Virus record (IMG/VR): IMGVR_UViG_2721755676_000004
DNA length: 54,213 bases
Source: a virus
Taxonomy: Duplodnaviria; Heunggongvirae; Uroviricota; Caudoviricetes
Strand: one strand, 5' to 3'
Shown here: positions 5,601-41,357 of the stretch, piece after piece
Position numbering within the stretch: the stretch's first letter is position 1
Layout of the letters: each line of letters starts with the position of its first letter
Translations under genes and position numbers: made by a program
Notes under the pieces: generated by a model
The model's database searches: none
What the model saw: the letters and a program-made list of their open reading frames with translations, nothing else
What the model was told of the DNA's origin: nothing

Positions 5601-5618
5601 ATATGGGTTATAACAATT

Positions 5619-10381: not shown

Positions 10382-10386
10382 GGGAT

Positions 10387-11423: not shown

Positions 11424-14400
11424 TTAATATTCCCCCATCACGTCGCATATTTAACAGATTGCCCTGCACCCGCTGATCAACCATCCCCATAAGTGCTTTT
11501 ATTGCCTGAGGGCCAATCTCTCCATTCTGGCCGTCATTTTGAATAGTGATTTGGTATACAGGGGCATAGGTAATATCTCCGCCTCCATTACCACTTTTAC
11601 TATTAATAGCTCTGACACCAAGAGAACCATCGGAAGTTCGTGTTAATGGCATAATGGCTTCCGGTCCAGCCTCACCAAAAACACCAGCCCCTTTTGCAAA
11701 AGCAAAAAATTGCGGGGAATCATAAATACCGTTCGAATACGTGCTCAATGACGGAGACTCATAAACACCGCCCTTTGCATTCGGAATAAATTTACTAATA
11801 GCACTCCCGATAGTTCCTAAAATCTCCCCAGAAGAACTGTTACTAATGCTGTCGAAAATCCCAGTAATTGAAGCCTTTAATGCCATTCGACTAAGATCCG
11901 AAATCACGGAAGTAGCGAAAGAACGAAAATTTGCCTTGCCTGTCGTGACAAAATCACCCAGCGCATCGGTCATCCCATCAAACATCTGAGTCGTGGTTGA
12001 TTTTATCTGCTCACTGATATCCTTAGTGTCATCCAGCCAGTTATTGAATCCCTGGGAGGCACCACTAACCCAGTCTCCTGCCTGAATATCGAGTTGCTCG
12101 TTTTTCTGTCTGACAATTTCTTTTTCCCGTTCCAGAGCATCATTCAGAGCCTGCATTTTCTCTTGAAAAACATGATCTGACATTCCACGGGATTTATCTG
12201 CATAGTCACGTTCAAGTTGCAGACGCTGATTGTTATATCCATGTTCAATCCGCAGTAATTCCTGCTGGCGTTGCTGATTTTTATCGCCAACCCCATAACC
12301 AGCAATCTGAATATCATACCCCTGCTGACGATTATCAATCGAAGCCTGCAATGAATCACGCCATGCTGTTATTTCGGCGGATTCCTTGATTAGCCTGTTA
12401 TTCTTTTCAATCGCAACATTTTTCTCCATCAACGCGGTTATTTCTTCCCGGTGTAAGAGAAGCGATTTCTGATCCTGGGTTAATTTCGATGATGGTCGTG
12501 ACTCTAGGTCGGCAATCCGCTGACGCCACTTAACCAGTTCCTGTTCAGAGGAACTTAATTTAACGGTCAACTCAGCTTGTGAACTTAGTAACGCATTCTG
12601 TTGATTCAGATGATCAATCATTCGTTGGGCTGCATCATCAGAATAACCTTTCGCCTTTGGTTGCTTTGGATCTTTATAACGCTCATTTATTTGAGCGATA
12701 AGATTATTATATTCTTCCTTTGAATACTGATTCTTTAGCTTTTCCAGTTTTGCAAGTTCACTAGCTCTCTGCTGCTCCCGGGTCTGATATTGTTTTGAAA
12801 AGGCATCTGCTCTCTGTCTGAGTTCAATTCCTTCCTGTTGTCGCTTGTTGTAATCGTTTATTGATGAATTTAGTACGTCCTGAGCAATTTTTTCTGCTTG
12901 AAGTACGCCCAATTGCTGCTTTAATCGTGCCAGCCTTTTATTTTGAGCTCCGCCATCTCCAATGCCACCTAACCCGAAAACTCCGGGTCGGGTATTTTTT
13001 TCTATTTCATCAATTTGACGGAGAACATCTGAGATTTTTTGATCAAGGGAGGCCTCACGGCCAATATCCAGCATGGAATCCCATGCCCATTTTGCGGAGT
13101 CTGCGACAGCTTTCCATGCAGTCTCAAGATAACCAAGATTTTCTTTAATCTGGTTGGTGCGCTGGATCATTGAGGATGAGTATTCTTCTGTCGCAATGCG
13201 GGCGGCCTCCTGCTGGTTCCCTTCATCCTGTAGCGCCTTAATCTGGTTATAAGTCGCAAGTGTCAGAAAATGGTACTGATCATTAAGTTTTGATATGGCA
13301 CTGACAGGATCCTTTGCAATTTCATTGAAGTCATTAACCAGTTGTTCGGTTGATATTCCTGTTACTTCGCTCGTTTTTACTATCGCTGTCGTCACTTGCT
13401 CCAGCGAACTGCTCGCTACCTTTCCCGAACGCACAAGCTGATTTAATACTGCCGCCGCAGCACCAGTTGTCGAATCAGCCGCATTCCCGGCACGTTGAGC
13501 TATATCGCCCAATTGCCCGCTGGTTGTCCCCAACTGATTTCCGGTAAGAATAAGAGATTTATTAAATTCGTCCTGCTCCTGAGAGCCTTTATAGTAAGCC
13601 AGTCCTAAGACCCCAACGGCTGCTGCGGCCAGGGTAAAAGGATTAATTAATCCCAGCACATAAGAACCTACACCTTTGATCGCCGGGCCAATCCCACCGA
13701 ACATATCTTTTAGCTGGCCGCCCTGCTGCATTAACACCATAAATGGCGACTGACCAGTGGACAACCCAACAACAATATCCGTCATTTGTGCAGGCAACAT
13801 GCGCATAGCAAAAGCCGTTTGTTTTGCCGACATTCCGGTTTTGCTTAATTGTGATTGAGTAACCTCAAGCTCACTCCGCATAGCACGAAGTTTTCCAGAA
13901 AGCTCCTCATACATTTCAGGAGAAAGCATCCCCTTAGCTTTTGCTTCATTGAGCTGTTTCTGTTGTTCTACCAGACGATTAAAAGCAGTTCCGACAGGAT
14001 CAAGTTGAGCAATCAGACGTTGCAAAGCAACAACCTGTTCATCATGCGCTTTTGCTGCTTCTCGCTCTGCCTGAGCCTCTCCGGTAAGCTCTCGCCGTGT
14101 TTCCTGTATTTTTCGGCTATAATTCTCAAACTGAGAACCATTTATTTTCCCGGATGCAAACGCAGCATTAAGTTCATCATGCTGTTGTTCAAGATTTCTT
14201 AGCGCCGCAGCCAGAGGGTCGATCTTGTCCAGCATTCTTTGAAAGGCCTGAGCCTGCGCTTCCTGCTGGGCGGCAGCAAGTTTTCCGGCCTTCTCGGCTT
14301 CTCTCTGCGCTTGCGCAACCCCGCTCAATTCCTCTGTGGTTTCATTAAGTTTACGGACAAGAAATTCATATTCTTCTTTATCAATAAGCCCTTTATCGAA

Positions 14401-21615: not shown

Positions 21616-23002
21616 TGATTTCCATCAGCATTACACTCTGATTTTTTAATTCATCGATCACTTCCTCTGGACGGGAATCCTGATCGATAAATTTCAACGC
21701 CTGCAACACCCGAACCGCATCAATCTGACGTATATCACCGCCCTGACGCAATGACTGAACAGCCAGCGCGGAGGATGAGTCAAACACCTGGGCAGATACA
21801 TCCAGTTCAGTGCGCACATCCACATTGCCACCGCAACTCTCTCCGATCCATTCCGCCATTATCTGGAGAATATTATCGAGGGCATCTTCGAGGGAGTTCG
21901 CCATTGTATAAAGCGGCGAGTTTTCCTGCATTCGCTCTTCATTAGTCTGATCAACAGATTTGGTGGATGTATTTTCAGCACGCAGAAGTTTAGCGCCGGC
22001 ATGACGCATCTGATTTTCCAGCTTCTCAAGTGATGTTTCGCCAGATTCTATCGCTGCGCCACTATGTTCAACATATTCGAGGCCATTTTTTGTTCTGTCC
22101 TCAAAAATCGTAGCGGTGGATGCACCAACCGTCAGTTCTTCATTCCTGTCCAGCCCGTAGGCCACCAGCAATGGAACGCGGGTAACATGAAGAATATTGT
22201 CCTGCTCGCTCTGGCTTTGCCAGTGCTTGATATTCAGCAAGCCAAGATTAAGCAATGGCGGTGTACCACGCATAAATCCTGTTTTCTTCGTGTACAGTGT
22301 TACCAGAGGAATATCATCACGGCTGGTATTCCATGACTCATGAAGCGTCCAGACAGATTCGCCATTAGTGCCTTCGCTACGTCGATAAATTTCAACTCGA
22401 CGGGGCATAATATGGCGGATCTGCTCCACCTTCTTCTGCCCGAAATCATCACCATCAATAATGATGACCTCTTTTATACGCAAATCAGTGAGAACAACTT
22501 TCCCTTTTTCAACTTTCGATTTCCATCCAATAACCTGGCGTGGATTCAGCATCGTAACGTACGGACGACCACCGGTCGCGTTTTCATCGGCTTTTGTACG
22601 AATCTCTTTCATATCCGTTCGTGGATAGTCCACCAGCGCATGTGCCACACCATACTGAAATGCGAGGCTGAAAAATTGCTGCGCCCACACATCCAGTCGG
22701 CTCCCCTCCATGTCGATATTTTCTGCATATTCCCTGATTTTTGCCGGCGTTTCCTCACTCAATACTGTCGGCTCTGCAAATATGCGCCCAATATTTTGCT
22801 TGATGCTTTCTTCATACACAGGAAGTAGCGTAGCCACAGACAGGCGTTTTTTATAAGCGTCTTCATCTTCGTTAGGCCATTTTGGGAGATAATTTTCCCC
22901 CTGCCTGCGCATTTCAAGCGTACCGCCCATCAGTGCGTCGTTAATATCCCACGCCTCCAGCATATCGTTATAGTCGAGGTTGGGTGTTGATATATCAGCC
23001 AT
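21596..23002 (-). CDS. Portal protein
   Basis: 468 aa; immediately downstream of large terminase. Confidence 0.8.
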   Translation of the reverse strand: MADISTPNLDYNDMLEAWDINDALMGGTLEMRRQGENYLPKWPNEDEDAYKKRLSVATLLPVYEESIKQNIGRIFAEPTVLSEETPAKIREYAENIDMEGSRLDVWAQQFFSLAFQYGVAHALVDYPRTDMKEIRTKADENATGGRPYVTMLNPRQVIGWKSKVEKGKVVLTDLRIKEVIIIDGDDFGQKKVEQIRHIMPRRVEIYRRSEGTNGESVWTLHESWNTSRDDIPLVTLYTKKTGFMRGTPPLLNLGLLNIKHWQSQSEQDNILHVTRVPLLVAYGLDRNEELTVGASTATIFEDRTKNGLEYVEHSGAAIESGETSLEKLENQMRHAGAKLLRAENTSTKSVDQTNEERMQENSPLYTMANSLEDALDNILQIMAEWIGESCGGNVDVRTELDVSAQVFDSSSALAVQSLRQGGDIRQIDAVRVLQALKFIDQDSRPEEVIDELKNQSVMLMEINDANRE

Positions 23003-23004
23003 AA

Positions 23005-24315
23005 TTAAATCCGAAGTGATGTGACTCTTCCGGTCGGTTTGACAATAGGGAATTGCTTAACGATGAAATAACCTCCGGCATCATTCGGGTGATCATTGCC
23101 AGATTTTTTATCAGGCTCCCCCTTCTCATCCCAGACCTGTTGCTCCAGAGATTCGGCATATAACGGGCAACGCTTCACATTAACTTTATAGCGACGCTCA
23201 CCATTGGCATTGCAGAACATTGCATTCATTGAGTTAACGCGATCTTTTACTGGCGGGTTCGAGCTGTTCACCACAACGTTAAAACCAGCCTGCTTAAGCT
23301 GGGCTATATCCGTCGTACTTGCGTTACTTGATTTTCTGGAATCCCCGGAAGCATCTGGATAAATATAAATTTCCCTCACTTTCCGGTAATCATTCCCATC
23401 ATACAGCCAGAAGCGTTCTTTAATGATGCGGATCATATCCGGCGTATCGTAGGCATTGATGATTTCAGTTACCGCACATGGAAGCCCCAAACGCAGCACA
23501 TGGACGATTCCCGCCATCTTTCCAACGTTAAAATCCATCCCAATATAAATCGGCTCCCCTGGCTGCTCCACTTCTTCGCAATTATTCAGTTTCCGGTCAA
23601 ACTGATGGTAAACAGTACCACTTGTCAGGTTAGTAAACTGTCCTCGAAGATAGGCTTTAATCAGCTCTGGAGGGTATGATTCAAGAAGCGAAGGAATGTA
23701 ATCTGCTGGCAGGTTCTTTTCATTATCGAAAGTAGATGCCTGCACCAGACCATACAGTGAGGCCAGCTCTGTTTTTTCACGCACGGCTTTAACAAACTGC
23801 TCGTAGACAAATTTGAATCCTTCCGGCGTGGTTGTAACGTCAATACCGTTGCGAAGTCCATCAATCTTATAACGCATACGTGCAATTATCTTGCGCCACG
23901 CCGTTCTGGCTTTTTCCTTCGGCAAAATGTCCAGTTCATCCACCAACGCATTACCAATTTTGAAACCGACGATCGTTTGTGGCTTCTCCATCGATCTGCA
24001 GATAGTGGTTCCCCGATACTGGCGTCCGTAATAAAAGTGAACCTCTTTATTTCCCTCATTAATTTTTACGTTCAATCCCCAGTCAGCAGCAACTTCTTCC
24101 ACTGTAGGGTAAAAAATATCGCGAATTTGGGGATACGTTGGCGCAAAATATCCCTGATTTATACCTGGATGCTCCCAAATCCCCTTGCATATGCCGCCAC
24201 ACCCAACCCATGTTTTGCCCGAGCCAAAACCAGCAATATAGGCTTTAAATTTATGGGGCATTGAAAGAAATCGCGCCTGAGGCACATTAAGCGTCGGAGA
24301 GATCATCTTCATCAC
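23005..24315 (-). CDS. Terminase large subunit
   Basis: 436 aa; Walker A-like GFGSGKT near N-terminus; acidic nuclease-type C-terminal region. Confidence 0.9.
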   Translation of the reverse strand: MMKMISPTLNVPQARFLSMPHKFKAYIAGFGSGKTWVGCGGICKGIWEHPGINQGYFAPTYPQIRDIFYPTVEEVAADWGLNVKINEGNKEVHFYYGRQYRGTTICRSMEKPQTIVGFKIGNALVDELDILPKEKARTAWRKIIARMRYKIDGLRNGIDVTTTPEGFKFVYEQFVKAVREKTELASLYGLVQASTFDNEKNLPADYIPSLLESYPPELIKAYLRGQFTNLTSGTVYHQFDRKLNNCEEVEQPGEPIYIGMDFNVGKMAGIVHVLRLGLPCAVTEIINAYDTPDMIRIIKERFWLYDGNDYRKVREIYIYPDASGDSRKSSNASTTDIAQLKQAGFNVVVNSSNPPVKDRVNSMNAMFCNANGERRYKVNVKRCPLYAESLEQQVWDEKGEPDKKSGNDHPNDAGGYFIVKQFPIVKPTGRVTSLRI

Positions 24316-25381
24316 TCCTTACTCTGGCATCAACCACATTAATATTGATCGCCACAGGCTGGGGATGTTCATTATCTTCCACCGTTTCGATCTCTTTGCG
24401 CAGCTTCTGGTTTTCCATTCTGCGCCGTTCAATTTCCAGTTCTTGTAGCCGTTTATCTGCACATAAAGCCCCGCCAGCAGAAAACAAACGCAACAATTCA
24501 CGCCGGGCGGCAGCCTTATCCTCCAGCAGGATCTCAACGCCGAATTTTCCGAATTTTGCCCCTGCATATAATTGCCGCGCATCCCCATCAAGCAGAGTGG
24601 TATCAGCCATATAAAGCTGTCCCGTTCCCTCACCGCAGCACTTCGGGCAGTCCGGATTGGGTATGGCGTTATCAACAAAGCCGAGGCCTCCATATTCCGG
24701 TTCGGGTTTGCCATCTCTGGAAGCCTGCGCCGCTGCCTTGTCGAATTCTGCTATATCGCGCCACTGGTAGAGATGATTCTCGCCCCAGCAATAACGGCAG
24801 TTAACACGGCGAAATTGTGCAAGCTGATTGGGGTCGGCCAGGACAATAGCCATCAACTGACTCACTAGTAAATCCAGGTCTGCGGTATAGCGTTTCTGGT
24901 ACTGATTGCGGAAGTAGCTGATAGCGCGAAAAACCCTGGCATTTCTAAGCATACGACTGGCGTTGCTGTTAGCTGTCGCACCTTGCCCCTCATAACCGGC
25001 TAGTCGGTACGCCTCTGTCGGCTTTTTACCCTGAGCAACAAGCATCGCAAACTTAGCCTGCTGGTCAGAAATGCCGAATTCATCGGGACAGAACGAAAAT
25101 TCCTCCGCGTCGCCCTCATTCAGGCCCGCATCGAATACTGGCTTTTTTTCCTGAGATTTTTCGTTCCGCTTTTGTGCAGTCTGCGCAGATTTTTTCTGCG
25201 CACTTTTTTGCGCAGTTTTGCACATTTCTGTCTGCGCATTTTTCGGAGTTTTTTTGATGTAACGACGGGCTGTTGCGTAATTCAGTCCCCTTGCTTCACA
25301 CCATGCCACCGGAGATATACCGGAGCGGGTGTATTCAGCAATATACTCCTGCTGCAACGCCCCCCAGTCCGGTCTGCTCAT
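24287..25381 (-). CDS. Terminase small subunit with C-terminal Cys-rich extension
   Basis: 364 aa; N-terminal HTH; central AYRLAGY...ASRMLRN motif typical of P27-type small terminases; overlaps terL start. Confidence 0.7.
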   Translation of the reverse strand: MSRPDWGALQQEYIAEYTRSGISPVAWCEARGLNYATARRYIKKTPKNAQTEMCKTAQKSAQKKSAQTAQKRNEKSQEKKPVFDAGLNEGDAEEFSFCPDEFGISDQQAKFAMLVAQGKKPTEAYRLAGYEGQGATANSNASRMLRNARVFRAISYFRNQYQKRYTADLDLLVSQLMAIVLADPNQLAQFRRVNCRYCWGENHLYQWRDIAEFDKAAAQASRDGKPEPEYGGLGFVDNAIPNPDCPKCCGEGTGQLYMADTTLLDGDARQLYAGAKFGKFGVEILLEDKAAARRELLRLFSAGGALCADKRLQELEIERRRMENQKLRKEIETVEDNEHPQPVAININVVDARVRSDEDDLSDA

Positions 25382-25384
25382 CAG

Positions 25385-25636
25385 TTAGTCCTGATTTTTA
25401 TCCACCCTGAGTAGTTCGCGCAGAGCAAAGGCATCCCCTTTTCTGGCAAGCTTAAACAATGCCGCTCGTAACTCGGCTTCACCTTTCGCTCTGCCCTTAC
25501 GGATGGCCGCATAAAAATCTGTCATTGCTTCCCGATTTTCTTTCAGTCGGTTCAGATCAACATCCAGAACGTCAGCGATTTGTTGTGCAGTCATCCGGCA
25601 CGCTGCCAGAGACTCGACTTTCGAATACGGAATCAT
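25385..25636 (-). CDS. Small HTH DNA-binding protein
   Basis: 83 aa; predicted HTH (TAQQIADVLDVDLNRL); overlaps the upstream gene end, so true start may be internal. Confidence 0.45.
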   Translation of the reverse strand: MIPYSKVESLAACRMTAQQIADVLDVDLNRLKENREAMTDFYAAIRKGRAKGEAELRAALFKLARKGDAFALRELLRVDKNQD

Positions 25637-26525
25637 TTGTCACCCCCATTGATATGCAGGGTGTCTTCTTCCTGTATTTTTCGTGAAGGATTTTTACTGC
25701 AGCGTTGTTCCAGGTGACCTGATGGTGAATGCGTTTATGGCTGGCACCCATCAGTGAGATTTTTACGCACGACGGCGCATACATGACGGAGTAAAAACTT
25801 TTAACGTAGGTTCCGGAATCCAGATACAGCTCGGTCATTCCGCCGCTGTTTTTCTGCGTCTGTTTCTGCCCTAACTGGACAGCACCGATCGTCATAAACA
25901 ATTCACCACAGCGACCGAGATTCGTGTACGTATTCACATCCTCGTTAATGCGCCCCATGAATGAGAACGGTCGATCAACCGAACAGATAAAGCTGTTCAT
26001 TGCCTTGCGTTTCACCCACGAAGCATGGCCGCCATTGTCACCAAGAAAATCCCCGCCCTGCGACATAGCGATGGAAAGAGCAGGTATTGATTCGTAGTAC
26101 GCCAGCATTTCAGAAAGGATCGCATCCAGTTTCCTTATCGGAAAATAGGCCTGGTCATAGTTGCGATCCACCCGAAACTGGAACTCGTGATAATCATCAT
26201 CGAGCTGAATGAAGTATTTACACCCGACCAGTTTTGCCAGGTCGAAACAGGCATTACGGGCGTAAAAAATTGAGCGGCGGTCACAGAAATTATCGGCTTC
26301 GTCAAAACGACTGGCGATATCGGCTTTGGAAAACACCAGCACCTGTTCACCAAATTCAGCCATGTACTGATTCCGTGTCTTATCTTCATCATCAACAACG
26401 ATAAAAATTTTCCCGGTATAGCCAGCACGACGCAACGTCCGGTAAGTCAGAACTTTGTCCGGTCGCCCGTGAGTCAGAATAAAGGCGCAAAAATCATCAC
26501 GCATATTCCTCCTCCTCACCACCAT
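25572..26525 (-). CDS. Soluble GT-A-fold glycosyltransferase-like protein
   Basis: 317 aa; N-terminal ILTHGRP...IFIVVDDED and later QLDDDY resemble GT2 strand-loop and DxD motifs; no TM segments. Confidence 0.55.
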   Translation of the reverse strand: MVVRRRNMRDDFCAFILTHGRPDKVLTYRTLRRAGYTGKIFIVVDDEDKTRNQYMAEFGEQVLVFSKADIASRFDEADNFCDRRSIFYARNACFDLAKLVGCKYFIQLDDDYHEFQFRVDRNYDQAYFPIRKLDAILSEMLAYYESIPALSIAMSQGGDFLGDNGGHASWVKRKAMNSFICSVDRPFSFMGRINEDVNTYTNLGRCGELFMTIGAVQLGQKQTQKNSGGMTELYLDSGTYVKSFYSVMYAPSCVKISLMGASHKRIHHQVTWNNAAVKILHEKYRKKTPCISMGVTNDSVFESRVSGSVPDDCTTNR

Positions 26526-27288
26526 GCATGATCTCCACCATGCGCTGCGTCATCCGGACAAATCCATTTTCAATAGCCTGCTGATAATCAATGATCACCA
26601 GCGCCGACTCCTCGAAAAAACACTGAATTTCAGAGGGGGCGTGAGCGTAATAGTCCGCAATTCTGCTGAAATTAAACACCGTGTGACGTTCTGCCGCACA
26701 CAGGAGGAATTTCTCAATATCAGGCTCAAGGGACGCCGAACGTATCCGGCTGATCAGCTCCTGAGTTTTCGTATCGTCGTACAGTTCACTGATATCCGGT
26801 TTACCGCCCGACGGCTCATAAACAGGCGTATCAATTTTCGTCGTATACGGCTCCTCCTCATTTCCTGTACCGGGCAAAACATCCGTCAACAGTTCATCAA
26901 TTTCTGTCGGGATGAAGCCTGTCAGGGAGACATCAAAATCAGCATTGATTAGGTCCGACAGCTCCATCCGCAACAGATCTTCATCCCAGCCAGCATTCAT
27001 CGGCAGGCGATTATCTGCCAGGCGGTACGCCTTTTTCTGCTCATCCGTCAGGCCAGACAGAACAATGACCGGAACAGAATCCATTTTGAGCATTTCAGCC
27101 GCCATAACACGACCGTGACCCGCAATAATTTCGCCCTTTTCGTCAATCAGCACCGGATTAGTCCAGCCGAATTGCTTAATACTTTCTACCAGTTGTGCCA
27201 CCTGCTCAGGGCTGTGCGTCCTGGCGTTGTGCGCATACGGTGACAATTCTTGTAATGGGCGATAGACTATCTTTAATTTCTCGCTCAT
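26497..27288 (-). CDS. ParB/Srx N-terminal domain (ParB-like nuclease) protein
   Basis: 263 aa; IIAGHGRVMAA core motif typical of the ParB N-terminal domain; acidic C-terminus. Confidence 0.8.
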   Translation of the reverse strand: MSEKLKIVYRPLQELSPYAHNARTHSPEQVAQLVESIKQFGWTNPVLIDEKGEIIAGHGRVMAAEMLKMDSVPVIVLSGLTDEQKKAYRLADNRLPMNAGWDEDLLRMELSDLINADFDVSLTGFIPTEIDELLTDVLPGTGNEEEPYTTKIDTPVYEPSGGKPDISELYDDTKTQELISRIRSASLEPDIEKFLLCAAERHTVFNFSRIADYYAHAPSEIQCFFEESALVIIDYQQAIENGFVRMTQRMVEIMHGGEEEEYA

Positions 27289-27302
27289 ACAGCCTTGCTT
27301 TA

Positions 27303-27339
27303 TGAATAAAACGCACCCCAGCAGCCAGTGCTACTGGGG
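27303..27339 (-). terminator. Terminator candidate downstream of trkG
   Basis: CCCCAG...CTGGGG hairpin followed by a T-rich tract on the minus strand. Confidence 0.35.
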
Positions 27340-27425
27340 ACGGAGGGGTTGCTGGTAAAGTTAGGTATTGGATCAATGAGTGAGTCAACATAATATTAAA
27401 CTCACAATTATAAATCAGCCATATA

Positions 27426-28901
27426 TTAGGAGCGCCAAAAAAAACCTGAAAACAATATAATAACAGGATAAATTTCAAGGCGACCAAGAATCATAGCTAT
27501 GCACATTAAACATTTTGCAATGTCATTAAGCACTCCGAATGACGATGCAGTAGCCCCAAAACCTAATCCCATATTATTAATACATGCAGCCACTGTTGCA
27601 AATGATGTAAGAAAATCATATCCCATACCATTTAACACCAGTATAAAAAACACCGTGAAGAGAGTATAAAGAAAAAAGAAACTCCATACAGACCTCATTA
27701 CACGATCTGTAACTATCTTCCCTCCTACATTTACACTCAACAACGCTCTGGGATGAGAAAGCTGATTTATCTCGTGTTTGCTTTGTTTGAAAAGTATAAG
27801 AAATCGAAGTGACTTAATTCCACCACAAGTTGAACCTATACATCCCCCAAAGAAACTTGACAACAGCAAAAACACTATCGTGTGCGTGGGCCAACTTGCA
27901 TAATCCTGCGTAGCTAAACCATTATCAGTGAGCATGGAGCTGGCAAGAAAAAACGAATGAATAAAACTTCCATGCAAGTCATACATACCTATATGCCAGA
28001 CCTGGAAAGAGGTAACAATGATCACCCCTAAGGCTATTAACAGAAAGAAACGAAGTTCAATATCTCTGATTAAAGGTTTTATCGTTTTCCTGCTAATAAC
28101 AATATACCAAAGAGTGAAGTTGAAAGCCGATAGCAGGGAAAAAGAACCAGCCACCAGCTCAACCAAATAGTTATTAAAATATCCGATACTCTCGCTATGA
28201 GTTGAGAAACCACCAAGCGAAACTGTGGAAATCCCGTGACAAATAGCATCAAACAAAGGCATTCCTGCAAGTCTATAACAGACAATACAAGCAATACCTA
28301 ATAAAGAATAAGTTATCCACAGTGTCCGTGACGTATCGGCCAGGCGGGGAGTGAGTTTGTCATCCTTAAATGGCCCCGGCATTTCTGACTGATAAAGCTT
28401 TGCACCACCAATACCCAATAATGGCAATACAGCAACCGCCAGAACAATAACTCCTAAACCACCTATAAAATTTAACTGTGACCGATAGTACAAATATGCC
28501 CGAGGTAATGAACTAACATCATCAATTACAGTTGCTCCTGTTGTTGTTATTCCAGAAACCCCTTCAAACAGAGCATCAATGAACGTTAAATTAAGTTCTG
28601 AGTCAATCCATAAAGGGAATGCACTAATAACAGAAAACAAAATCCAAAACATTACAATTATAATAAACCCATCACGGGTACGTAATTGAATGCCAGATTT
28701 CTTAGTTGTATACCACGCTCCGCCACCAATGCAAAAAAATATAACGAAAGTTATAAAGAAAACGAACAGGCTTTTTTCTTTATAAAACAATGCTACAACC
28801 ATTGGTGGCAACATTGAAAGACTATAGAGCCAAACCAGGAACCCACACATATGAGTAACAACTCTTACATGAGATGTATTCATATCTAAATATTCTTTCA
28901 A
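27426..28901 (-). CDS. trkG: Trk-system potassium uptake protein (TrkH/TrkG family)
   Basis: 491 aa polytopic membrane protein with repeated GG-containing pore-loop motifs; visibly AT-rich relative to flanks. Confidence 0.85.
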   Translation of the reverse strand: MKEYLDMNTSHVRVVTHMCGFLVWLYSLSMLPPMVVALFYKEKSLFVFFITFVIFFCIGGGAWYTTKKSGIQLRTRDGFIIIVMFWILFSVISAFPLWIDSELNLTFIDALFEGVSGITTTGATVIDDVSSLPRAYLYYRSQLNFIGGLGVIVLAVAVLPLLGIGGAKLYQSEMPGPFKDDKLTPRLADTSRTLWITYSLLGIACIVCYRLAGMPLFDAICHGISTVSLGGFSTHSESIGYFNNYLVELVAGSFSLLSAFNFTLWYIVISRKTIKPLIRDIELRFFLLIALGVIIVTSFQVWHIGMYDLHGSFIHSFFLASSMLTDNGLATQDYASWPTHTIVFLLLSSFFGGCIGSTCGGIKSLRFLILFKQSKHEINQLSHPRALLSVNVGGKIVTDRVMRSVWSFFFLYTLFTVFFILVLNGMGYDFLTSFATVAACINNMGLGFGATASSFGVLNDIAKCLMCIAMILGRLEIYPVIILFSGFFWRS

Positions 28902-29020: not shown

Positions 29021-29485
29021 TTACTTTAAACACTGCTCGGTTATGTATTGCTGAGCACCTTCAAGTTGGGCCTGCATCATTACCAGTCGTTCCCGGAGGG
29101 TGAAATAATCCCGTTCAGCGGTGTCTGCCAGTCGGGGGGAGGCTGCATTATCCACGCCGGAGGCGGTGGTGGCTTCACGCACTGACTGACAGACTGCTTT
29201 GATGTGCAACCGACGACGACCAGCGGCAACATCATCACGCAGAACATCATTTTCAGCTTTCGCATCAGCTAACTCCTTCGTGTATTTTGCATCGAGCGCA
29301 GCAACATCACGCTGACGCATCTGCATGTCAGTAATTGCCGCGTTCGCCAGCTTCAGTTCTCTGGCATTTTTGTCGCGCTGTTCTTTGTAGGCGATGGCGT
29401 TATCACGGTAATGATTAACACCCCATGACAGGCAGACGACGATGCAGATAACCAGAGCGGAGATAATCGCGGTTACTCTGTTCAT
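29021..29485 (-). CDS. Rz i-spanin
   Basis: N-terminal TM then coiled coil; start [12 protein letters not shown] at 29485 overlaps endolysin stop (ATGA); resembles lambda Rz. Confidence 0.8.
29080..29265 (-). CDS. Rz1 o-spanin lipoprotein embedded in Rz (+1 frame)
   Basis: 61 aa; lipobox LVVVGC; proline-rich (PPPPPAW); fully nested in Rz. Confidence 0.75.
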
Positions 29486-29711
29486 TGCTGACCCCACAAA
29501 CAGATTTCACGCTCAATCTCACGACGAGTCATGAGACCTTTCCATTGCTTACCGCCAGCATATGTCCAGCGACGTAGCTGATCACATGCGCCTTTGATAT
29601 CGCCCTGGTTTATTTTGCGAAGAAGCGTCGATGTTCTGAAATTGCCAGCACCCACGTTGTAAACGAATGAGTAAAGAGCGCCGCGCGTTGTTTCCGGTAT
29701 ATCGACTTTGA
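29482..29711 (-). pseudogene. SAR endolysin, C-terminal fragment (IS2-disrupted)
   Basis: Encodes ...[23 protein letters not shown]...CLWGQQ; reading frame runs into the IS2 left end. Confidence 0.85.
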
Positions 29712-29802
29712 TAGACTGGCCCCCTGAATCTCCAGACAACCAGTATCACTTATTTAAGTGATAGTCTTAATACTAGTTTTTAGACTAGTCATTGGAGAGC
29801 AG

Positions 29803-30168
29803 ATGATTGATGTCTTAGGACCGGAGAAACGCAGACGGCGTACCACACAGGAAAAGATCGCAATTGTTCAGCAGAGCTTTGAACCGGGGATGACGGTCTC
29901 CCTCGTTGCCCGGCAACATGGTGTAGCAGCCAGCCAGTTATTTCTCTGGCGTAAGCAATACCAGGAAGGAAGTCTTACTGCTGTCGCCGCCGGAGAACAG
30001 GTTGTTCCTGCCTCTGAACTTGCTGCCGCCATGAAGCAGATTAAAGAACTCCAGCGCCTGCTCGGCAAGAAAACGATGGAAAATGAACTCCTCAAAGAAG
30101 CCGTTGAATATGGACGGGCAAAAAAGTGGATAGCGCACGCGCCCTTATTGCCCGGGGATGGGGAGTAA
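29803..30168 (+). CDS. insC: IS2 transposase OrfA (InsC)
   Basis: 121 aa from [13 protein letters not shown]; HTH; A AAA AAG slippery site at 30120..30126 near its end. Confidence 0.85.
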
Positions 30169-31031
30169 GCTTAGTCAGCCGTTGTCTCCGGGTGTCGCGT
30201 GCGCAGTTGCACGTCATTCTCAGACGAACCGATGACTGGATGGATGGCCGCCGCAGTCGTCACACTGATGATACGGATGTGCTTCTCCGTATACACCATG
30301 TTATCGGAGAGCTGCCCACGTATGGTTATCGTCGGGTATGGGCGCTGCTTCGCAGACAGGCAGAACTTGATGGTATGCCTGCGATCAATGCCAAACGTGT
30401 TTACCGGATCATGCGCCAGAATGCGCTGTTGCTTGAGCGAAAACCTGCTGTACCGCCATCGAAACGGGCACATACAGGCAGAGTGGCTGTGAAAGAAAGT
30501 AATCAGCGATGGTGCTCTGACGGGTTCGAGTTCCGCTGTGATAACGGAGAAAAACTGCGAGTCACGTTCGCGCTGGACTGCTGTGACCGTGAGGCACTGC
30601 ACTGGGCGGTCACTACGGGCGGCTTCAACAGTGAAACAGTACAGGACGTCATGCTGGGAGCGGTGGAACGCCGCTTCGGCAACGAGCTTCCGGCGTCTCC
30701 AGTAGAGTGGCTGACGGATAATGGTTCATGCTACCGGGCTAATGAAACACGGCAGTTTGCCCGGATGTTGGGGCTTGAACCGAAGAGCACGGCGGTGCGG
30801 AGTCCGGAGAGTAACGGCATAGCAGAGAGCTTCGTGAAAACGATAAAGCGTGACTACATCAGTGTCATGCCCAAACCAGACGGGTTAACGGCAGCAAAGA
30901 ACCTTGCAGAGGCGTTCGAGCATTATAACGAATGGCATCCGCATAGTGCACTGGGTTATCGCTCGCCACGGGAATATCTACGGCAGCAAGCCAGTAATGG
31001 GTTAAGTGATAACAGGTGTCTGGAAATATAG
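30126..31031 (+). CDS. insD: IS2 transposase OrfB (InsD), DDE catalytic domain
   Basis: 301 aa in the -1 frame relative to insC; rve/DDE-type integrase core. Confidence 0.85.
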
Positions 31032-31042
31032 GGGCAAATCCA

Positions 31043-31315
31043 TTTGATGTACGGGTTAATTTGTCTGGCGACCGTGGCAAGGTCTTTATTCAAGAGTGTT
31101 TTGCATTCTGCTTTGGTATACGTTTTACCGAGCATGATGTCTTTTCCTGTATGCCCGTGACATACAGTCCATACACCAACAATATCTTTGTATGGTATGT
31201 AGCTGACACCTTCCAGACCATCGTTACCACTTGGGCCAGTGATTAACACTGATGCTATAGCAATTGCTCCGCCACCAATAGCAGCAGCAACGACTTTTCG
31301 TAATGATGGAGGCAT
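31043..31315 (-). pseudogene. SAR endolysin, N-terminal fragment (IS2-disrupted)
   Basis: [27 protein letters not shown]... signal-anchor-release domain as in phage 21 R; frame continues into IS2 right end after INPYIK. Confidence 0.85.
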
Positions 31316-31781: not shown

Positions 31782-32177
31782 CTAACCTCGCATGTCAAAG
31801 CCAGATTTCTGAAAATCTCTGTAGACTTCCGGATTGTTGAAGGCCGGAAATTTGGCTTTATGAGCTGCGGACTTTATCGCTTCGCAATAGGCTTTATCAC
31901 CGTTACTGGTAGATATTTTTAACGCCGTGCCATCCTGAGAGAATTCCATATGCAACCTGCATTTTTTCCCTTTCCAGTTATGCGGCTCATCAAGTTTGGC
32001 ATTAATTGCAGCTCTGATTCCCCGCGCTTGCGCCCCCCATTCATCCTGATCATCCCAGCGTCCTGAACTGCAACTACCTGTAGCAGTAGTTTTGTGGCAA
32101 TCTGAAGGGTGTAAAGGTGTGCATCCCGCAACAAAACCGACCCAAAAAGTCAACATAACGATTTTCTTTAATCCCAC
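31782..32177 (-). CDS. Lipoprotein with TolA domain III-like C-terminal domain (paralog 1)
   Basis: 131 aa; signal peptide with lipobox FVAGC; C-terminal KGKKCRLHMEF...CEAIKSAAHKAKFPAFNNPEVYRDF matches the TolA C-terminal pattern. Confidence 0.65.
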   Translation of the reverse strand: MGLKKIVMLTFWVGFVAGCTPLHPSDCHKTTATGSCSSGRWDDQDEWGAQARGIRAAINAKLDEPHNWKGKKCRLHMEFSQDGTALKISTSNGDKAYCEAIKSAAHKAKFPAFNNPEVYRDFQKSGFDMRG

Positions 32178-32327
32178 TTCTTGCTCCTCAATCCATTAAA
32201 ATCTCAGCAATAGTAGTTGTTACGTCCGCCACTGGCTCAGAGCTGACTATCCGCTAAATTTAGCTCAGTGCCGTAGCTGTGTCAGAACAAACCTAAGCCG
32301 AAACCGTTTATTACAAAACAATAAATA

Positions 32328-32756
32328 TCAGGGTTTAAAATCCAGCACCCCATTTTGAAATACTTTATATACTTCCGGCGAAGGGGGGGCAGGTATATCA
32401 GCATTCTTTATCGCATTCATCGCTTCACGACATAAATCGAGGTCTCCACTTTCTCTTTTAACCTCCAGTAGAAGGCCATTCGGGGCCATATGCATTCTCA
32501 GTGTACACTCTTTTCCTGAATACTTACTCGCATCCCCGAACTGTTTTTCGATGGCGCTCTTGATTTGATGGGCATACAGACGGATATCCTCACTAACATC
32601 AGAAGTACGTTCAGATGAACTCACATACTGTGTCTCTATTGCTTTATCGGAGTAATATGATGTACGGTCATGATAATTTGTCGATACAGCATCAGTGCAC
32701 CCGATAATAATCCCACTAATAATCAACGTAAGAATTGATGCGCTACGAAAACCCAT
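32328..32756 (-). CDS. Lipoprotein with TolA domain III-like C-terminal domain (paralog 2)
   Basis: 142 aa; lipobox IIIGC; C-terminal YAHQIKSAIEKQFGDASKYSGKECTLRMHMAPNGLLLEV...PPSPEVYKVFQNGVLDFKP closely resembles the E. coli TolA C-terminus as I remember it. Confidence 0.7.
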   Translation of the reverse strand: MGFRSASILTLIISGIIIGCTDAVSTNYHDRTSYYSDKAIETQYVSSSERTSDVSEDIRLYAHQIKSAIEKQFGDASKYSGKECTLRMHMAPNGLLLEVKRESGDLDLCREAMNAIKNADIPAPPSPEVYKVFQNGVLDFKP

Positions 32757-37104: not shown

Positions 37105-38304
37105 ATGCCATTTGTTATTTATGTGTTTACTATCAGTGCCTTTGCGCTCGGACTCGCGGAATTTGTCCCCATTGGGCTGACAGACGTTATGGCTCAGGGG
37201 TTGTGTGTGGGTGTGGAGCAGACCGGGGCAGCGGTTACAACCTATGCACTGGGGGCAACGTTCGCGGCACCCGTACTGTCTGCGCTGACAGCAAGCTGGA
37301 GCCGGAAAAATGTAATGCTTACAACTGCCGTTGTGTTTACTGCCGGTAGTCTGGCGGCCGCGTTTGCAGCCACATTACCTCAGCTCCTGTTAGCGCGGTT
37401 CATTGCTGGTCTGGGACACGGCCTGTTTCTGGCTGCGGCATCCAGTACCGCAGCTCGTCTTGCTGGACCGGGTAAAGCAGGCAGAGCGGTGGCTGTGGTA
37501 TTTGGTGGCTTTACTCTGGCGATGGCAATCGGCGTACCGCTGAGTACATGGTTGGGGGGGGTGGTCTCATGGCGTCCAGTTCTCGGCGCTATTGCCGCTT
37601 TTGGCGCGTTCGGATTCCTTGGACTGTTGTTCGGTATGAAAGATCCCGTACGCAGCGTGCCCGGTGAACATAGTGACTCAGCAATGCAGAATATCGGCAT
37701 GCTGTTTAACCGTAAGTTGCTGGCCGGCGCGCTGGTTACGGTGCTGGCGTATGCAGGCTCGTTTACGGCTTACACCTTTATCGCACCTATTCTGACGCAG
37801 GTGACAGGGGTTACCGGAGCAACGGTGAGTCTGTTTATGCTGGTTTACGGTATTACAGCTGCGGTAGGTAATATTCTTGGTGGGAAACTTACCGACAGCA
37901 TGGGGGTTAATCGTGCCAATATACTCATCATTAGCGGCATTGTTGTTGTCGTGCTTGGTATGTGGCTGCTGTCATCCTCACCGGTGAGCATGGGCATTCT
38001 GGTTGCGCTGCTGGGTATGGTGACATTTGCCGCAGTGCCGGCACTGCAGGCCCGTCTGATTGGTGTCGCTGAGCAACATGCTCCTCATGCGCATGGTGTT
38101 GCTGCCGGCCTGAATATTGCGGGCTTCAACTCAGGTATAGCGCTGGGATCAGTACTGGGCAGCATTACTATAAGCCACGCCGGTATCGTGTATACCGGTA
38201 TCAGCGGTGCGATTGTTTCTCTGCTCGGCCTGCTGTTGCTGCTTGCACAAATCCGTCGCAGCCACAGTCGTAAATTTCAACAGGTTAAAATCGTAGGCCA
38301 GTAA
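37105..38304 (+). CDS. MFS transporter (12 TM)
   Basis: 399-aa polytopic hydrophobic protein with MFS-like loop motifs. Confidence 0.85.
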   Translation: MPFVIYVFTISAFALGLAEFVPIGLTDVMAQGLCVGVEQTGAAVTTYALGATFAAPVLSALTASWSRKNVMLTTAVVFTAGSLAAAFAATLPQLLLARFIAGLGHGLFLAAASSTAARLAGPGKAGRAVAVVFGGFTLAMAIGVPLSTWLGGVVSWRPVLGAIAAFGAFGFLGLLFGMKDPVRSVPGEHSDSAMQNIGMLFNRKLLAGALVTVLAYAGSFTAYTFIAPILTQVTGVTGATVSLFMLVYGITAAVGNILGGKLTDSMGVNRANILIISGIVVVVLGMWLLSSSPVSMGILVALLGMVTFAAVPALQARLIGVAEQHAPHAHGVAAGLNIAGFNSGIALGSVLGSITISHAGIVYTGISGAIVSLLGLLLLLAQIRRSHSRKFQQVKIVGQ

Positions 38305-38315
38305 AGGGAGGTTAT

Positions 38316-39008
38316 ATGCTTACCCGTGAAAATATGCTTAATGGCACATTTGTCAGGGTGCATGAAGCGCTGCTCCCGGCGAATATGCTCTGGGACGCTG
38401 AAAAAATACGCGCATCAATGAACTCTACTCTGGAGGAGCGCCCGACGGGTGCTCCTGTCTGGATATTTGCCTACGGGTCATTGATGTGGAATCCCGTGCT
38501 GGCGATTGAAGAAATGCAACGGGCCCGTCTGAAAGGATGGCAGCGCAGTTTCTGCATTCGTTTGATATCCGGACGAGCGACTCCTGATGTCCCCGGCAGG
38601 ATGTTATCGCTCGACGAAGGTGGAATTACCGAAGGTATTGCGTTCAGACTGCCGGAATCGACTCTTATTAATGAGCTGGAAATTGTCTGGACGCGCGAGA
38701 TGATAACCGGTCTTTACCGTCCGGTCTGGGCAGACGTTTCGCTAGGAAACGGTGAGGAAATTCAGGCGCTGGCTTTCGTATCAGACAGACTGCATCCGCA
38801 TTATGAACAGGACAATCTTACAGCGACCGTAGCGTTGAGCATCGCATCTGCCCGTGGAGACATTGGCACGAATGCAGATTATGTATGGAAACTGCAGGCC
38901 ACTCTGGGTGCGTTGGGAATACGGAATGATTACGTGAGTGAACTGGCCCTTGCTCTGCATGAGGCTCCCTGTAACGATAAACTTCATCAGCGAGGCGCTT
39001 CACTATGA
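38316..39008 (+). CDS. ChaC-family gamma-glutamylcyclotransferase-like protein
   Basis: 230 aa; VWIFAYGSLMWNP motif and overall similarity to E. coli ChaC. Confidence 0.75.
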   Translation: MLTRENMLNGTFVRVHEALLPANMLWDAEKIRASMNSTLEERPTGAPVWIFAYGSLMWNPVLAIEEMQRARLKGWQRSFCIRLISGRATPDVPGRMLSLDEGGITEGIAFRLPESTLINELEIVWTREMITGLYRPVWADVSLGNGEEIQALAFVSDRLHPHYEQDNLTATVALSIASARGDIGTNADYVWKLQATLGALGIRNDYVSELALALHEAPCNDKLHQRGASL

Positions 39009-39886: not shown

Positions 39887-39932
39887 TGTTTGAAACGGAT
39901 GATTGGCGATGCGTATCATAAGTTACGTATGT

Positions 39933-39960
39933 CCGCTTCTGGCACAAAGCAGACGCCCAC
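39933..39960. repeat. 28-bp repeat copy A (TTGGCACAAAGCNGAC..CCAC core)
   Basis: Near-identical to 43606..43633, direct orientation. Confidence 0.5.
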
Positions 39961-40016
39961 TCTCACGCGAATGCTTTGCCCTTGACTTGCCAACAACCGT
40001 ATCGCTTGCTCCGCAA

Positions 40017-41309: not shown

Positions 41310-41357
41310 ATTGCAGCCGGGATAAATAAATGCCGCCTCTGTGGCGGCATGTTGCTG

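Follow-up and report, generated by a model that had tools for sequence, protein, structure and literature searches.

In a 54,213-nt stretch of tailed-phage DNA (hereafter the window), which contains an intact E. coli prophage of Rac type, a gene for a ParB-like protein, which we call the adaptor, overlaps a gene for a glycosyltransferase of the TAGT family. Since the two genes were found side by side in every relative examined with enough sequence, the pair is an obligate cassette, probably acting as one functional unit, and this pairing is new: searching the literature on PF20691, GREB1-related proteins, ynaK and DNA glycosyltransferases with ParB, we found no study of the pair. We tentatively read it as an adaptor-dependent DNA glycosyltransferase that would act late, before packaging.

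The two genes overlap and are coupled

Both open reading frames lie exactly where an earlier note on this DNA had placed them, at 26497..27288(-) and 25572..26525(-), the latter being the longest frame in the ORF list for the transferase (317 aa). PGAP starts the transferase at ATG 26504, a start backed by homologues, which yields a product of 310 aa. The overlap that had been described is therefore present, but its extent of 29 nt was a product of choosing the longest frame, and the supported start reduces it to 8 nt. This ATG runs over the stop of the adaptor gene (ATGCGTGA) and is preceded by GGAGGAGG, an arrangement that couples the two genes translationally (Table 1).

As the earlier note had it, the pair sits between trkG (27426-28901) and the 83-aa ORF, TerS and TerL; matches in the terminase region were to Pfam Terminase_2 and Terminase_6N/6C and to PHROG 309, 51 and 2. 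The GC content of trkG is low (0.37-0.42), and its terminator has a 10-bp stem, 7 of whose pairs are GC, with TGCGTTTTAT after it. No promoter-like site was found between this terminator and the pair. With dN of 0.14-0.29 and a saturated dS, which puts a proper dN/dS value out of reach, the pair appears to be under purifying selection.

Table 1. Features of the adaptor-TAGT region, in positions of the window.
Feature	Position	Strand	Details
TAGT-family GT-A glycosyltransferase	25572..26504	(-)	310 aa; 317 aa with start at 26525
DDD of QLDDDY (D102-D104, 310-aa numbering)	26193..26201	(-)	predicted DxD metal/NDP-sugar motif after beta-4
Translational-coupling junction	26497..26517	(-)	GGAGGAGG Shine-Dalgarno, then ATG 26504-26502 over adaptor stop ATGCGTGA
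Adaptor gene (full-length ynaK)	26497..27288	(-)	ORF, 263 aa: ParB/Srx N-domain, disordered linker, conserved C-terminal module
C-terminal helical module	26524..26796	(-)	residues ~165-255; FLxxAAxRH...IA[DE][FY]Y...SALVIID..AIxxG[FY]; acidic tail at end
Short linear motif Y148-T-T-K-I-D-T-P-V-Y-E-P159	26812..26847	(-)	disordered linker; family pattern Y[TS]xK[IV]xxPxYxP
ParB/Srx N-terminal domain	26884..27288	(-)	residues 1-135; alignment to Noc/ParB chains
Hairpin terminator of trkG moron	27316..27339	(-)	28 nt upstream of adaptor ATG
Context outside cassette: 83-aa ORF, TerS, TerL	23005..25636	(-)	Pfam and PHROG matches
83-aa ORF	25385-25636	(-)	
TerS	24287-25381	(-)	
TerL	23005-24315	(-)	

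The transferase is a soluble member of the TAGT family

The TAGT family was reportedly defined by Iyer et al. in 2013. The transferase matched its Pfam profile (PF20691) with an E-value of 8.4e-35 (121 bits, cut-off 27.5), residues 15-229 spanning profile positions 4-205 of 205, and PHROG 842 matched it at 1.2e-103; PF20691 was present in all listed homologues. The stretches ILTHGRP, IFIVVDDED and QLDDDY, from which the earlier note had proposed a GT-A enzyme, are all there, and a GT-A fold with a DxD motif was found. Its DDD, the codons of which were read from the sequence, sits in the model where predicted strand E97-102 ends and does not vary among 20 homologues (59-82% identity); a second acidic cluster, VVDDED, lies upstream of it at residues 36-41. 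The acceptor-side half of the protein is basic (pI 9.5), and the last 95 residues of the model have a pLDDT below 50. No NCBIfam model matches the transferase, though its PGAP name is 'GREB1-related protein', and phmmer against PDB sequences returned no match. Judged by its sequence, the 310-aa protein is thus soluble and belongs, as a GT-A enzyme, to the TAGT family.

In HMM membership, fold, DxD motif, solubility and phage origin, the transferase resembles the TAGT/GT-A phage DNA glycosyltransferases, and second glycosyltransferases and sugar-tailoring enzymes accompany some relatives of the cassette as they do TAGT systems. The cassette clade is locked to a specific adaptor protein; the TAGTs of T-even and Aeromonas phages, 23-26% identical to the cassette transferase, have no such partner. 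By Pfam/NCBI naming and according to Pyle et al., JGT and GREB1 belong to the same GT-A superfamily lineage, from which the NCBI name stems, but JGT needs 5hmU made by JBP.

The GtrB serotype-conversion enzymes are likewise prophage-encoded and GT-A/GT2-like. They are membrane-anchored and work with GtrA and GtrC, whereas the transferase differs from them, as had been claimed, because it has no transmembrane segment (maximum KD(19) 1.08). Neither gtrA nor gtrC was seen near the pair, whose neighbours are trkG and the terminase genes, and we rejected a GtrB-type enzyme.

The adaptor combines a ParB/Srx domain with a conserved C-terminal module

The ParB/Srx assignment made earlier was borne out by the Pfam ParB_N profile (PF02195; E 1.2e-6, 28.9 bits, cut-off 26.3) and by Foldseek, with which the adaptor model matched ParB-CDP, Noc, PadC, KorB, Srx and SerK (E 6e-6). 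Neither the ParB_N nor the TAGT match is due to chance. The AF2 model comprises an N-domain (1-135), a disordered stretch (137-170) and a helical part (172-254), and the GHGR core noticed before lies at residues 57-60. When aligned with Noc/ParB, IIAGHGR stands opposite IIAGERR and LADN opposite LIEN; the P-motif GHGRVMAA keeps Arg60 and box III keeps Asn93, while His58 stands in for ParB's catalytic Glu. PHROG 620 covers the whole adaptor (E 8.5e-91), and, apart from 620 and 15396, the PHROG nearest to it is 498, 'DNA methyltransferase', aligned with residues 3-141 at 1.2e-50.

A canonical partition ParB (ParABS) was considered and rejected: against TIGR00180 the adaptor scored 38.5 bits (cut-off 58.45), through the N-domain only, its model contains no HTH parS-binding domain, and no ParA partner is annotated in the prophage. 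The nuclease-like character suggested in the earlier note found no backing, as nothing points to such activity. The AF2 model has no DNA-binding domain, the adaptor has no membrane segment (the maximum Kyte-Doolittle 19-residue means of the two proteins are 1.08 and 1.25), and the partners are strongly acidic (pI 4.1-5.2 in 26/26). Moreover, about 10% of partners lack the ParB domain and a Bacteroides-type clade has lost its GxxR arginine, implying that DNA targeting through ParB is not universal.

The best-conserved portion of the partner is the C-terminal module, above the ParB domain. In the linear motif next to it, in a region of pLDDT below 50 (AF2), all of the 19-26 partners compared, which come from several phyla and include a haloarchaeal virus, keep Y, P and Y, and nearly all keep K. 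The module had no credible relative in Pfam or the PDB, where only designed armadillo repeats and weak noise came up. It falls into 1,183 clusters at 50% identity, being C-terminal in all of the 150 listed except P0391, and is also met as a stand-alone protein of ~130 aa. We conclude that the motif and helical domain form a putative module not described previously, which, unlike the ParB domain, is the conserved element of the partner. The TAGT of Aeromonas phage Aeh1 has an extended N-terminus with a 'PRYEP' string, and we considered whether this is the partner motif in cis; we rejected it as chance because neither phage 65 nor Kuja has it in the homologous extension and its HMM score is nil.

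ParB-like partners of DNA-modifying enzymes have precedents. First, the T-dioxygenase of the 5mYOX176/ParB176 system needs ParB176 to act on double-stranded DNA (O'Toole et al. 2026, PMC13229309). ParB176 shares its layout with the adaptor: a domain for NTP binding, which in the adaptor is a predicted one, is joined by a disordered linker to a CTD, no DNA-binding domain is present, and the gene lies beside that of the cognate enzyme. The NTP-motif residues seem dispensable in both, as judged from mutation in the ParB176 system and from natural loss in the adaptor family. The cognate enzyme of the adaptor is a TAGT glycosyltransferase and not a dioxygenase, with no 5mYOX found; furthermore, its C-terminal module can serve as partner on its own, the likeness of the two CTDs being one of architecture. 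Second, the base modifier DpdA requires on double-stranded DNA the ATPase DpdB, a ParB-fold NTPase with a helical C-domain (PMC10164549). Dpd chemistry is transglycosylation, DpdB is marked by a DGQQR motif and by a C-domain that is SspE-like, and the 7-deazaguanine pathway is a bacterial restriction-modification system whereas the pair is a phage late-gene cassette. Third, the N-terminal 140 residues of the adaptor resemble those of the ParB-N6/N4 DNA methyltransferase fusions (PHROG 498; Kaljevic et al. 2025, PMC12704722), which share with the cassette an enrichment in prophages; unlike in these fusions, the effector is a separate glycosyltransferase, presumably recruited through the C-terminal module.

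The pair is kept together across viruses of Bacteria and Archaea

Starting from TAGT, we found the partner gene immediately upstream in 29/29 loci. Starting from the C-terminal module, TAGT followed the partner ORF in 79/79 viral loci (58 non-redundant), with a gap of ~20 nt or less in 77 of them; the genes abut or overlap in 29/29 and 77/79 related loci, respectively. Adjacency held in Proteobacteria, Bacteroidota, Firmicutes, Actinobacteria and a haloarchaeal virus, and the pairing was retained both in a 27%-identical Porphyromonas phage and in haloarchaeal HHTV-2. The transferases of E. coli, Lactobacillus, Nocardia and haloarchaeal viruses are 39-47% identical.

The surroundings of the pair vary. 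Its usual site is directly upstream of terminases that are not homologous to one another; elsewhere it is flanked on one side by replication/recombination genes and on the other by terminases, which belong to at least 6 Pfam families. It is ORF1 and ORF2, adjoining cos, in phage c5, and in jumbo phages it lies inside replication modules, not beside the terminase. Some phages have NTP_transf_3/IspD, CofD, CTP_transf_like, GLF, a SAM methyltransferase or a second TAGT next to the pair, probably as accessory donor-making or tailoring genes. The cassette occurs in about 1/6 of complete E. coli genomes, and it is optional, because the sister prophage L207 lacks the pair while sharing TerS (96.6% identity over 407 nt) and the 83-aa ORF.

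No source of a hydroxymethylated acceptor was found with the pair

All characterised relatives act on 5hmC, 5hmU or a sugar thereon (PMC13390438; bioRxiv 2023.12.21.572611). The TET/JBP or other nearby source of 5-hydroxymethyl-pyrimidine expected of PF20691 did not come to light: no TET/JBP (5mYOX), ThyS/dCMP-hydroxymethylase or DNA methyltransferase was found in the 54-kb window or in the complete cassette phages phi jlb1 and c5. These three classes were likewise missing from the 25 most frequent families listed for ~54 cassette neighbourhoods, a census in which single TET_JBP occurrences in some relatives are possible. Thus, the partner that gives TAGT systems their name was found in neither the prophage nor the complete phages. 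As every characterised relative requires a hydroxyl acceptor, it is a real puzzle that no enzyme making one was found, and this implies that the acceptor is either a canonical base, which would be new chemistry, or something not yet seen. The earlier note had missed this puzzle, as it had the TAGT family and the C-terminal module as the partner's conserved element. Pyle et al. noted that, of the phage contigs with relatives of DNA glycosyltransferases, ~65% lack a neighbouring 5mYOX or ThyS, and left their function open (bioRxiv 2023.12.21.572611); the cassette is a sharply defined and very widespread subset of these orphans, with an obligate partner.

What the cassette may do

The DNA modification or counter-defence role that the earlier note had raised is the best-supported reading, given TAGT membership and the phage ParB-like proteins that activate base modifiers (PMC13229309, PMC10164549). 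The two genes would form a two-component nucleotide-sugar transferase, which Rac-type phages would transcribe with the Q-dependent late operon. The C-terminal module of the partner may bind the basic acceptor-side half of the transferase, activating or positioning it, and the ParB-type domain, of the subtype fused elsewhere to DNA methyltransferases, could bring it onto double-stranded phage DNA. A sugar would then be added to replicated DNA ahead of packaging and might shield it from host nucleases or defence systems.

Several observations argue for DNA as the target. Relatives in the TAGT family are assigned to DNA glycan synthesis: a TAGT-type enzyme of T6-like phages to the second glucose on glucosyl-5hmC (PMC13390438), while GT-A phage enzymes were shown to glycosylate 5hmC (bioRxiv 2023.12.21.572611). 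The pairing is obligate and ParB-like activators have precedent, the N-domain matches PHROG 498, and the cassette is found in DNA-metabolism contexts. Donor-making or tailoring neighbours in some phages, the basic acceptor half, the optional nature of the cassette and the signs of purifying selection point the same way. Counted against a DNA target are the missing TET/JBP, ThyS-like and DNA methyltransferase enzymes, the acidity of a partner with no DNA-binding domain, the absence or erosion of its ParB domain in some lineages, and the low-confidence C-terminus of the transferase model. On balance, DNA is the target we hold to, tentatively.

The main rival, which we consider somewhat unlikely, is protein glycosylation on a hydroxyl. 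The most economical target would be the invariant Tyr or a Thr/Ser of the partner's own motif, docked by the C-terminal module, with glycogenin and the glycocin enzyme SunS as analogues; otherwise a phage or host protein would serve. This would remove the missing-acceptor problem and would suit a partner whose best-conserved features are a disordered Tyr/Thr motif and the adjoining helical domain rather than the ParB domain, whose module appears to function with no ParB domain in ~10% of loci, and whose acidity faces the basic acceptor half. In addition, the family relative GREB1 reportedly modifies a protein, by O-GlcNAcylation (PMC7968844). However, a self-glycosylated adaptor has no evident purpose, the ParB subtype is the kind fused to DNA methyltransferases, the cassette's surroundings are those of replication or DNA metabolism, and DNA is the substrate of the characterised phage members; nor are there phage proteins common to E. 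coli, Lactobacillus, Nocardia and haloarchaeal viruses, which keep such similar transferases.

Within the preferred DNA reading, a bolder proposal, unlikely in our view, is that the sugar goes straight onto a canonical constituent of DNA, no hydroxymethylated precursor being involved, with the C-terminal module as the activating subunit. If true, DNA would be modified by a so far undescribed chemistry, which would occur in virulent as well as temperate viruses of both Bacteria and Archaea.

That the enzyme is a conventional hydroxymethyl-pyrimidine glycosyltransferase, with its acceptor made elsewhere, seems distinctly improbable. Its substrate could be the 5hmC/5hmU DNA of superinfecting phages, which the prophage would thereby exclude; alternatively, the base could come from a hydroxylase that is unlinked or went unrecognised. 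The substrates of the characterised relatives speak for it; Pyle et al. raise the possibility of prophage glycosyltransferases hypermodifying invading genomes (bioRxiv 2023.12.21.572611), and O'Toole et al. count thousands of 5mYOX-like contigs with no TET/JBP annotation. By contrast, the late/packaging position and orientation, with no promoter-like site from the trkG terminator to the pair, favour lytic-cycle expression, and among the ORFs of complete pair-carrying phages of 32-38 kb, none is annotated as an unassigned one of dioxygenase size. Some cassette hosts belong to lineages with no known hydroxymethyl-pyrimidine phages.

It is very unlikely that the acceptor is neither DNA nor protein, that is, that the pair alters host surface or metabolism through a TarP-like change of an envelope polymer precursor or a small molecule. 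Enzymes of CDP-alcohol or NDP-sugar type (IspD/NTP_transf_3, CTP_transf_like, CofD, GLF) adjoin some relatives, but the transferase is soluble with no membrane anchor, the Gram-negative, Gram-positive and archaeal hosts of this highly conserved enzyme share no envelope acceptor, and both the obligate ParB-type partner and the late expression we infer speak against it. To a role in packaging, which the earlier note had entertained, or in partition, with the ParB-like protein binding near pac/cos or acting as a terminase nuclease, we give hardly any credence: the pair is directly syntenic with terminase genes in most loci and lies beside cos in c5, but L207 keeps TerS and the 83-aa ORF with no pair, the adjoining terminases are from unrelated families, jumbo phages carry the pair away from the terminase, the partner has no HTH, no ParA and a TIGR00180 score below cut-off, and the glycosyltransferase is left with no role.

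The host, E. coli, is the most tractable setting for such an orphan cassette, and the target is easy to test. If DNA is modified, either an acceptor chemistry that is new or a precursor pathway that has stayed hidden would be revealed, and the principle of ParB as an activator would widen from dioxygenases to glycosyltransferases. If protein is modified, the labels 'TET-associated' and 'beta-glucosyl-HMC-alpha-glucosyltransferase', spread by Pfam, PHROGs and pharokka-style pipelines, would be misleading for thousands of phage genes.

Relation to ynaK of K-12

The earlier note had the Rac prophage of K-12 keeping only fragments at this position, rightly so: K-12 strains match the window at 27035-27500 only and carry trkG, ynaK (87 aa), ydaY and a tape-measure fragment. 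Its idea of an intact form held as well, as the adaptor gene is the full version of which K-12 ynaK is a remnant, which explains the origin of the latter. We also noticed a recurrent PGAP artefact, by which intact adaptor genes are labelled ynaK pseudogenes.

The partner and the glycosyltransferase form a single cassette

Both open reading frames (see table) lie exactly where the earlier note had placed them, and no membrane segment was found in either protein. The gene of the enzyme, a TET-associated glycosyltransferase (TAGT), likely starts at ATG 26504, giving 310 aa, because the PGAP model and the starts of homologues agree and the site is preceded by GGAGGAGG; this ATG overlaps the partner stop codon (ATGCGTGA). 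Of 5,426 complete E. coli genomes, 866 carry the segment at full length. In K-12 strains just window 27035-27500 survives, comprising ynaK (87 aa) joined to ydaY, in agreement with the earlier note that the K-12 Rac prophage has only fragments at this position. RefSeq/PGAP labels the intact 263-aa gene "ynaK, pseudogene, missing C-terminus" (86 codons, 21732-21989 in both L001 and L002, genomes 99.9% and 100% identical to the 2.2-kb query), with ~525 nt left without annotation. This pseudogene call is apparently an artefact that stems from the truncated K-12 ynaK model.

The pair is an obligate, mobile and translationally coupled two-gene cassette. First, we collected relatives of the enzyme (50-100% identity) from species-dereplicated genomes and assemblies, covering Enterobacterales, Desulfovibrionaceae, Thiotrichales, Hyphomonadaceae, Bacteroidales, Lachnospiraceae, Faecousia, Prosthecochloris, Opitutia and Saccharibacteria. 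A partner homologue lay directly upstream, on the same strand and abutting or overlapping the enzyme gene, at 29 of 29 loci. The same arrangement was found in cultured viruses, namely Lactobacillus phages phi jlb1 and c5 (ORF1 and ORF2, adjoining cos), Nocardia phage NTR1 and Haloarcula virus HHTV-2 (genes 21 and 22), and the pairing is kept in a Porphyromonas phage though its enzyme is only 27% identical. Second, in the converse search, seeded with only the C-terminal 120 residues of the partner, a TAGT gene followed the partner ORF in 79 of 80 viral contigs (58 non-redundant), the 80th stopping at that point. The TAGT gene came within about 20 nt of the partner end in 77 contigs and after 264 nt (L124) and 430 nt (L182) in two. 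Third, the surroundings vary. Downstream lie terminase genes from at least six Pfam families unrelated to each other (Terminase_2/6, Terminase_3, Terminase_4/TerL_ATPase, GpA, GP3_package/Sf6 and T7-type), upstream genes are a mixture of replication, recombination or lysis genes, and the cassette sits at the boundary of DNA metabolism and packaging or within replication modules of jumbo phages. Moreover, the sister E. coli prophage L207 shares TerS (96.6% identity over 407 nt) and the 83-aa ORF but does not have the pair, which is therefore an optional cassette and not packaging machinery. Both genes are under purifying selection (dN is 0.14-0.19 in the enzyme gene and 0.29 in the partner gene; synonymous sites are saturated).

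Features in the window and at related loci
Feature	Position	Strand	Description
Partner ORF	26497-27288	-	263 aa; first ~100 residues ParB_N (Pfam E 1.2e-6); full length PHROG 620 (8.5e-91)
Enzyme ORF, longest	25572-26525	-	Pfam PF20691 TAGT, 121 bits (threshold 27.5); PHROG 842 (1.2e-103)
83-aa ORF	25385-25636	-	between glycosyltransferase and TerS; overlaps 3' end of glycosyltransferase gene
trkG moron with terminator	27316-28901		inserted between lysis genes and pair; GC 0.37-0.42
trkG hairpin terminator, strong	27339-27316	-	28 nt upstream of pair
IS2-type ORFs	29758-30168; 30126-31031	+	identified by translations and an "IS3-like element IS2 family" annotation in a matching genome
Endolysin, C-terminal piece	29482-29739	-	
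Endolysin, N-terminal piece	30956-31315	-	
L110, Hyphomonadaceae MAG prophage	2614-6161		partner, 564-aa fusion of TAGT and class-I SAM methyltransferase, second TAGT
L199, replication module of 123-kb gut phage	7001-11631		stand-alone module protein, CofD-like, NTP_transf_3/IspD, two TAGTs
L200, phage	1850-4418		ParB domain and C-terminal module as separate adjacent genes, then His_Phos_1-CTP_transf_like enzyme and TAGT

A conserved C-terminal module accompanies the enzyme

By aligning 26 partner sequences, we found that the ParB domain is the variable part, and in a Bacteroides-type clade even the GxxR arginine is gone (AGNG..VYEQ). Conservation is strongest in three features: a linker motif in a disordered segment, Y[TS]xK[IV]xxPxYxP (residues 148-159 in the window protein), the helical module that follows it, FLxxAAxRH..F.[FY]..IA[DE][FY]Y...Q.L[FM]E.SALVIID..AI..G[FY], and an acidic tail. 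Searches of Pfam and PDB with the module returned no credible relative. It occurs in about 1,180 clusters at 50% identity, and among the best 150 of these it is C-terminal in all but one protein (P0391). At roughly 8 of 80 viral loci the module comes without a ParB domain; Vibrio jumbo phages have, upstream of TAGT, a gene for a 139-aa protein comprising motif and module only, and the profile search returned many module-only proteins of ~130 aa, some on contigs of 35-123 kb. Since the module is found alone beside TAGT, module and TAGT would be the functional core, to which, judging from these sequences, the ParB/Srx domain is a frequent accessory.

The AlphaFold2 model of the enzyme, built from 20 homologues, has high confidence over residues 1-150 (pLDDT about 90) and is poor over 216-310; its top matches among viral models are other TAGT proteins. 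DDD 102-104 (QLDDDY), the VVDDED cluster and many further positions are invariant among homologues. The partner is predicted to consist of a ParB/Srx domain (1-135), a disordered linker (137-170) and a helical C-terminal part (172-254), with Foldseek matches to CTP/CDP-bound ParB, Noc, PadC, KorB, sulfiredoxin and a serine kinase. The phosphate-binding Arg of the P-motif (GHGRVMAA) and the box-III Asn (LADN) are retained, and a His stands where ParB CTPases have the catalytic Glu. We rejected the partner as a partition ParB: TIGR00180 scored under its cut-off, and there is no HTH and no annotated ParA.

A proposed two-component DNA glycosyltransferase

The gene families as such are already known (Pfam TAGT and ParB/Srx, PHROGs 620 and 842, NCBI name "GREB1-related protein"). 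That GT-A genes co-occur with ParB and terminase genes was noted in passing in a study that set aside the 65% of glycosyltransferases without 5mYOX/ThyS as not obviously DNA-related (bioRxiv 2023.12.21.572611), and our literature search found no study of the pair. What is new is the strict coupling in both directions, the distinct and unannotated adaptor module as the real partner element, the extension of the cassette to archaeal viruses, and an acceptor pathway not found even within complete small phage genomes.

The pair belongs with ParB-partnered nucleic-acid-modifying enzymes and TAGT glycosyltransferases, and most findings match that expected theme. A T-dioxygenase needs a phage ParB-like protein, whose NTP-motif residues are dispensable, to act on dsDNA (PMC13229309); the partner has the same NBD-linker-CTD architecture, with no DNA-binding domain. 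DpdA depends on the ParB-fold ATPase DpdB (PMC10164549), and in prophages ParB domains are often fused to DNA methyltransferases (PMC12704722); the N-domain of the partner matches a ParB-DNA methyltransferase PHROG at 1e-50. A two-component DNA glycosyltransferase is the best-supported reading. The acceptor-side half of the enzyme has a pI of 9.5 versus 5.2 for the donor half. The module and motif of the partner may dock on this basic half and activate or position TAGT; the ParB domain would raise residence on DNA and the glycosylated product would protect progeny DNA. That the acceptor is the DNA of the phage itself is a tentative proposal, at somewhat below an even chance.

Relatives that have been characterised add a sugar to 5hmC, to 5hmU or to a sugar already on them (PMC13390438; bioRxiv 2023.12.21.572611). 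No TET/JBP dioxygenase, thymidylate-synthase-type hydroxymethylase or DNA methyltransferase was found in the whole window (PGAP names, and Pfam on unnamed ORFs), in the complete phi jlb1 (38 kb) and c5 (32 kb), or among the 25 most frequent families listed for about 54 neighbourhoods, where single occurrences could escape. This missing acceptor poses a genuine puzzle; the system is directly tractable in E. coli. The puzzle would disappear if TAGT glycosylated a protein: the acidic partner, with an invariant Tyr/Thr motif in a disordered segment beside a docking domain, has the look expected of an acceptor substrate, and structural neighbours include glycogenin and SunS. We consider this unlikely. 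A conventional hydroxymethyl-pyrimidine glycosyltransferase, with foreign phage DNA as its substrate or an unrecognised hydroxylase as its supplier, seems more doubtful still. An envelope or small-molecule acceptor is quite improbable, being hard to square with a single conserved enzyme that spans Gram-negative, Gram-positive and archaeal hosts, and a packaging or partition role is hardly credible, contradicted by the pair-less L207.

Some relatives are accompanied by donor-making or tailoring enzymes: NTP_transf_3/IspD with CofD and a second TAGT, His_Phos_1-CTP_transf_like, UDP-galactopyranose mutase, and SAM methyltransferases, one fused to TAGT. Their presence fits a genuine NDP-sugar or NDP-alcohol transferase, one making variable glycans on a common acceptor.

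Distant TAGTs of about 400-446 aa (L204 3189-4388, L205 1168-2364, L206 853-2193) occur in T4-like Aeromonas phages and Vibrio phage Kuja; they are extended at the N-terminus by roughly 100-190 residues and have no adaptor gene. Those of Aeh1 and phage 65 have a ...TKSIW[WF]P... segment in common, and Kuja carries two TAGT genes in tandem.

Prophage context

An intact Rac-type lambdoid E. coli prophage makes up the window; its minus strand reads leftward intR, xisR, recET, replication genes, a Q-like gene, lysis genes, trkG, the pair, TerS, TerL, and head and tail genes. Given the trkG terminator upstream, and no promoter-like site between it and the pair, we infer that transcription of the pair belongs to the antiterminated late operon. 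The 83-aa ORF, kept beside TerS in L207, matches PHROG 309 "terminase small subunit" only in the middle of the profile (8e-23). The window TerS is long (364 aa), its Terminase_2 match being confined to residues 122-321.

The endolysin gene (29482-31315) is split by an IS2-type insertion, and this prophage copy probably has a lysis defect. A cellular-type cargo block (37105-43361) between the DUF1367/Q-like region and the replication genes comprises an MFS transporter, gamma-glutamylcyclotransferase, a LysR regulator, DUF2254 and a BCCT transporter. L207, an ETEC prophage, carries (1218-2654 and 8288-9506) an Acb1-family anti-CBASS gene after TerL and, before its lysis genes, a scabin-related ADP-ribosyltransferase and a subtilase-type B subunit. 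Finally, two neighbouring window ORFs of 131 and 142 aa (31782-32756, minus strand) have TolA C-terminal domains (Pfam 1e-14 and 2e-23).
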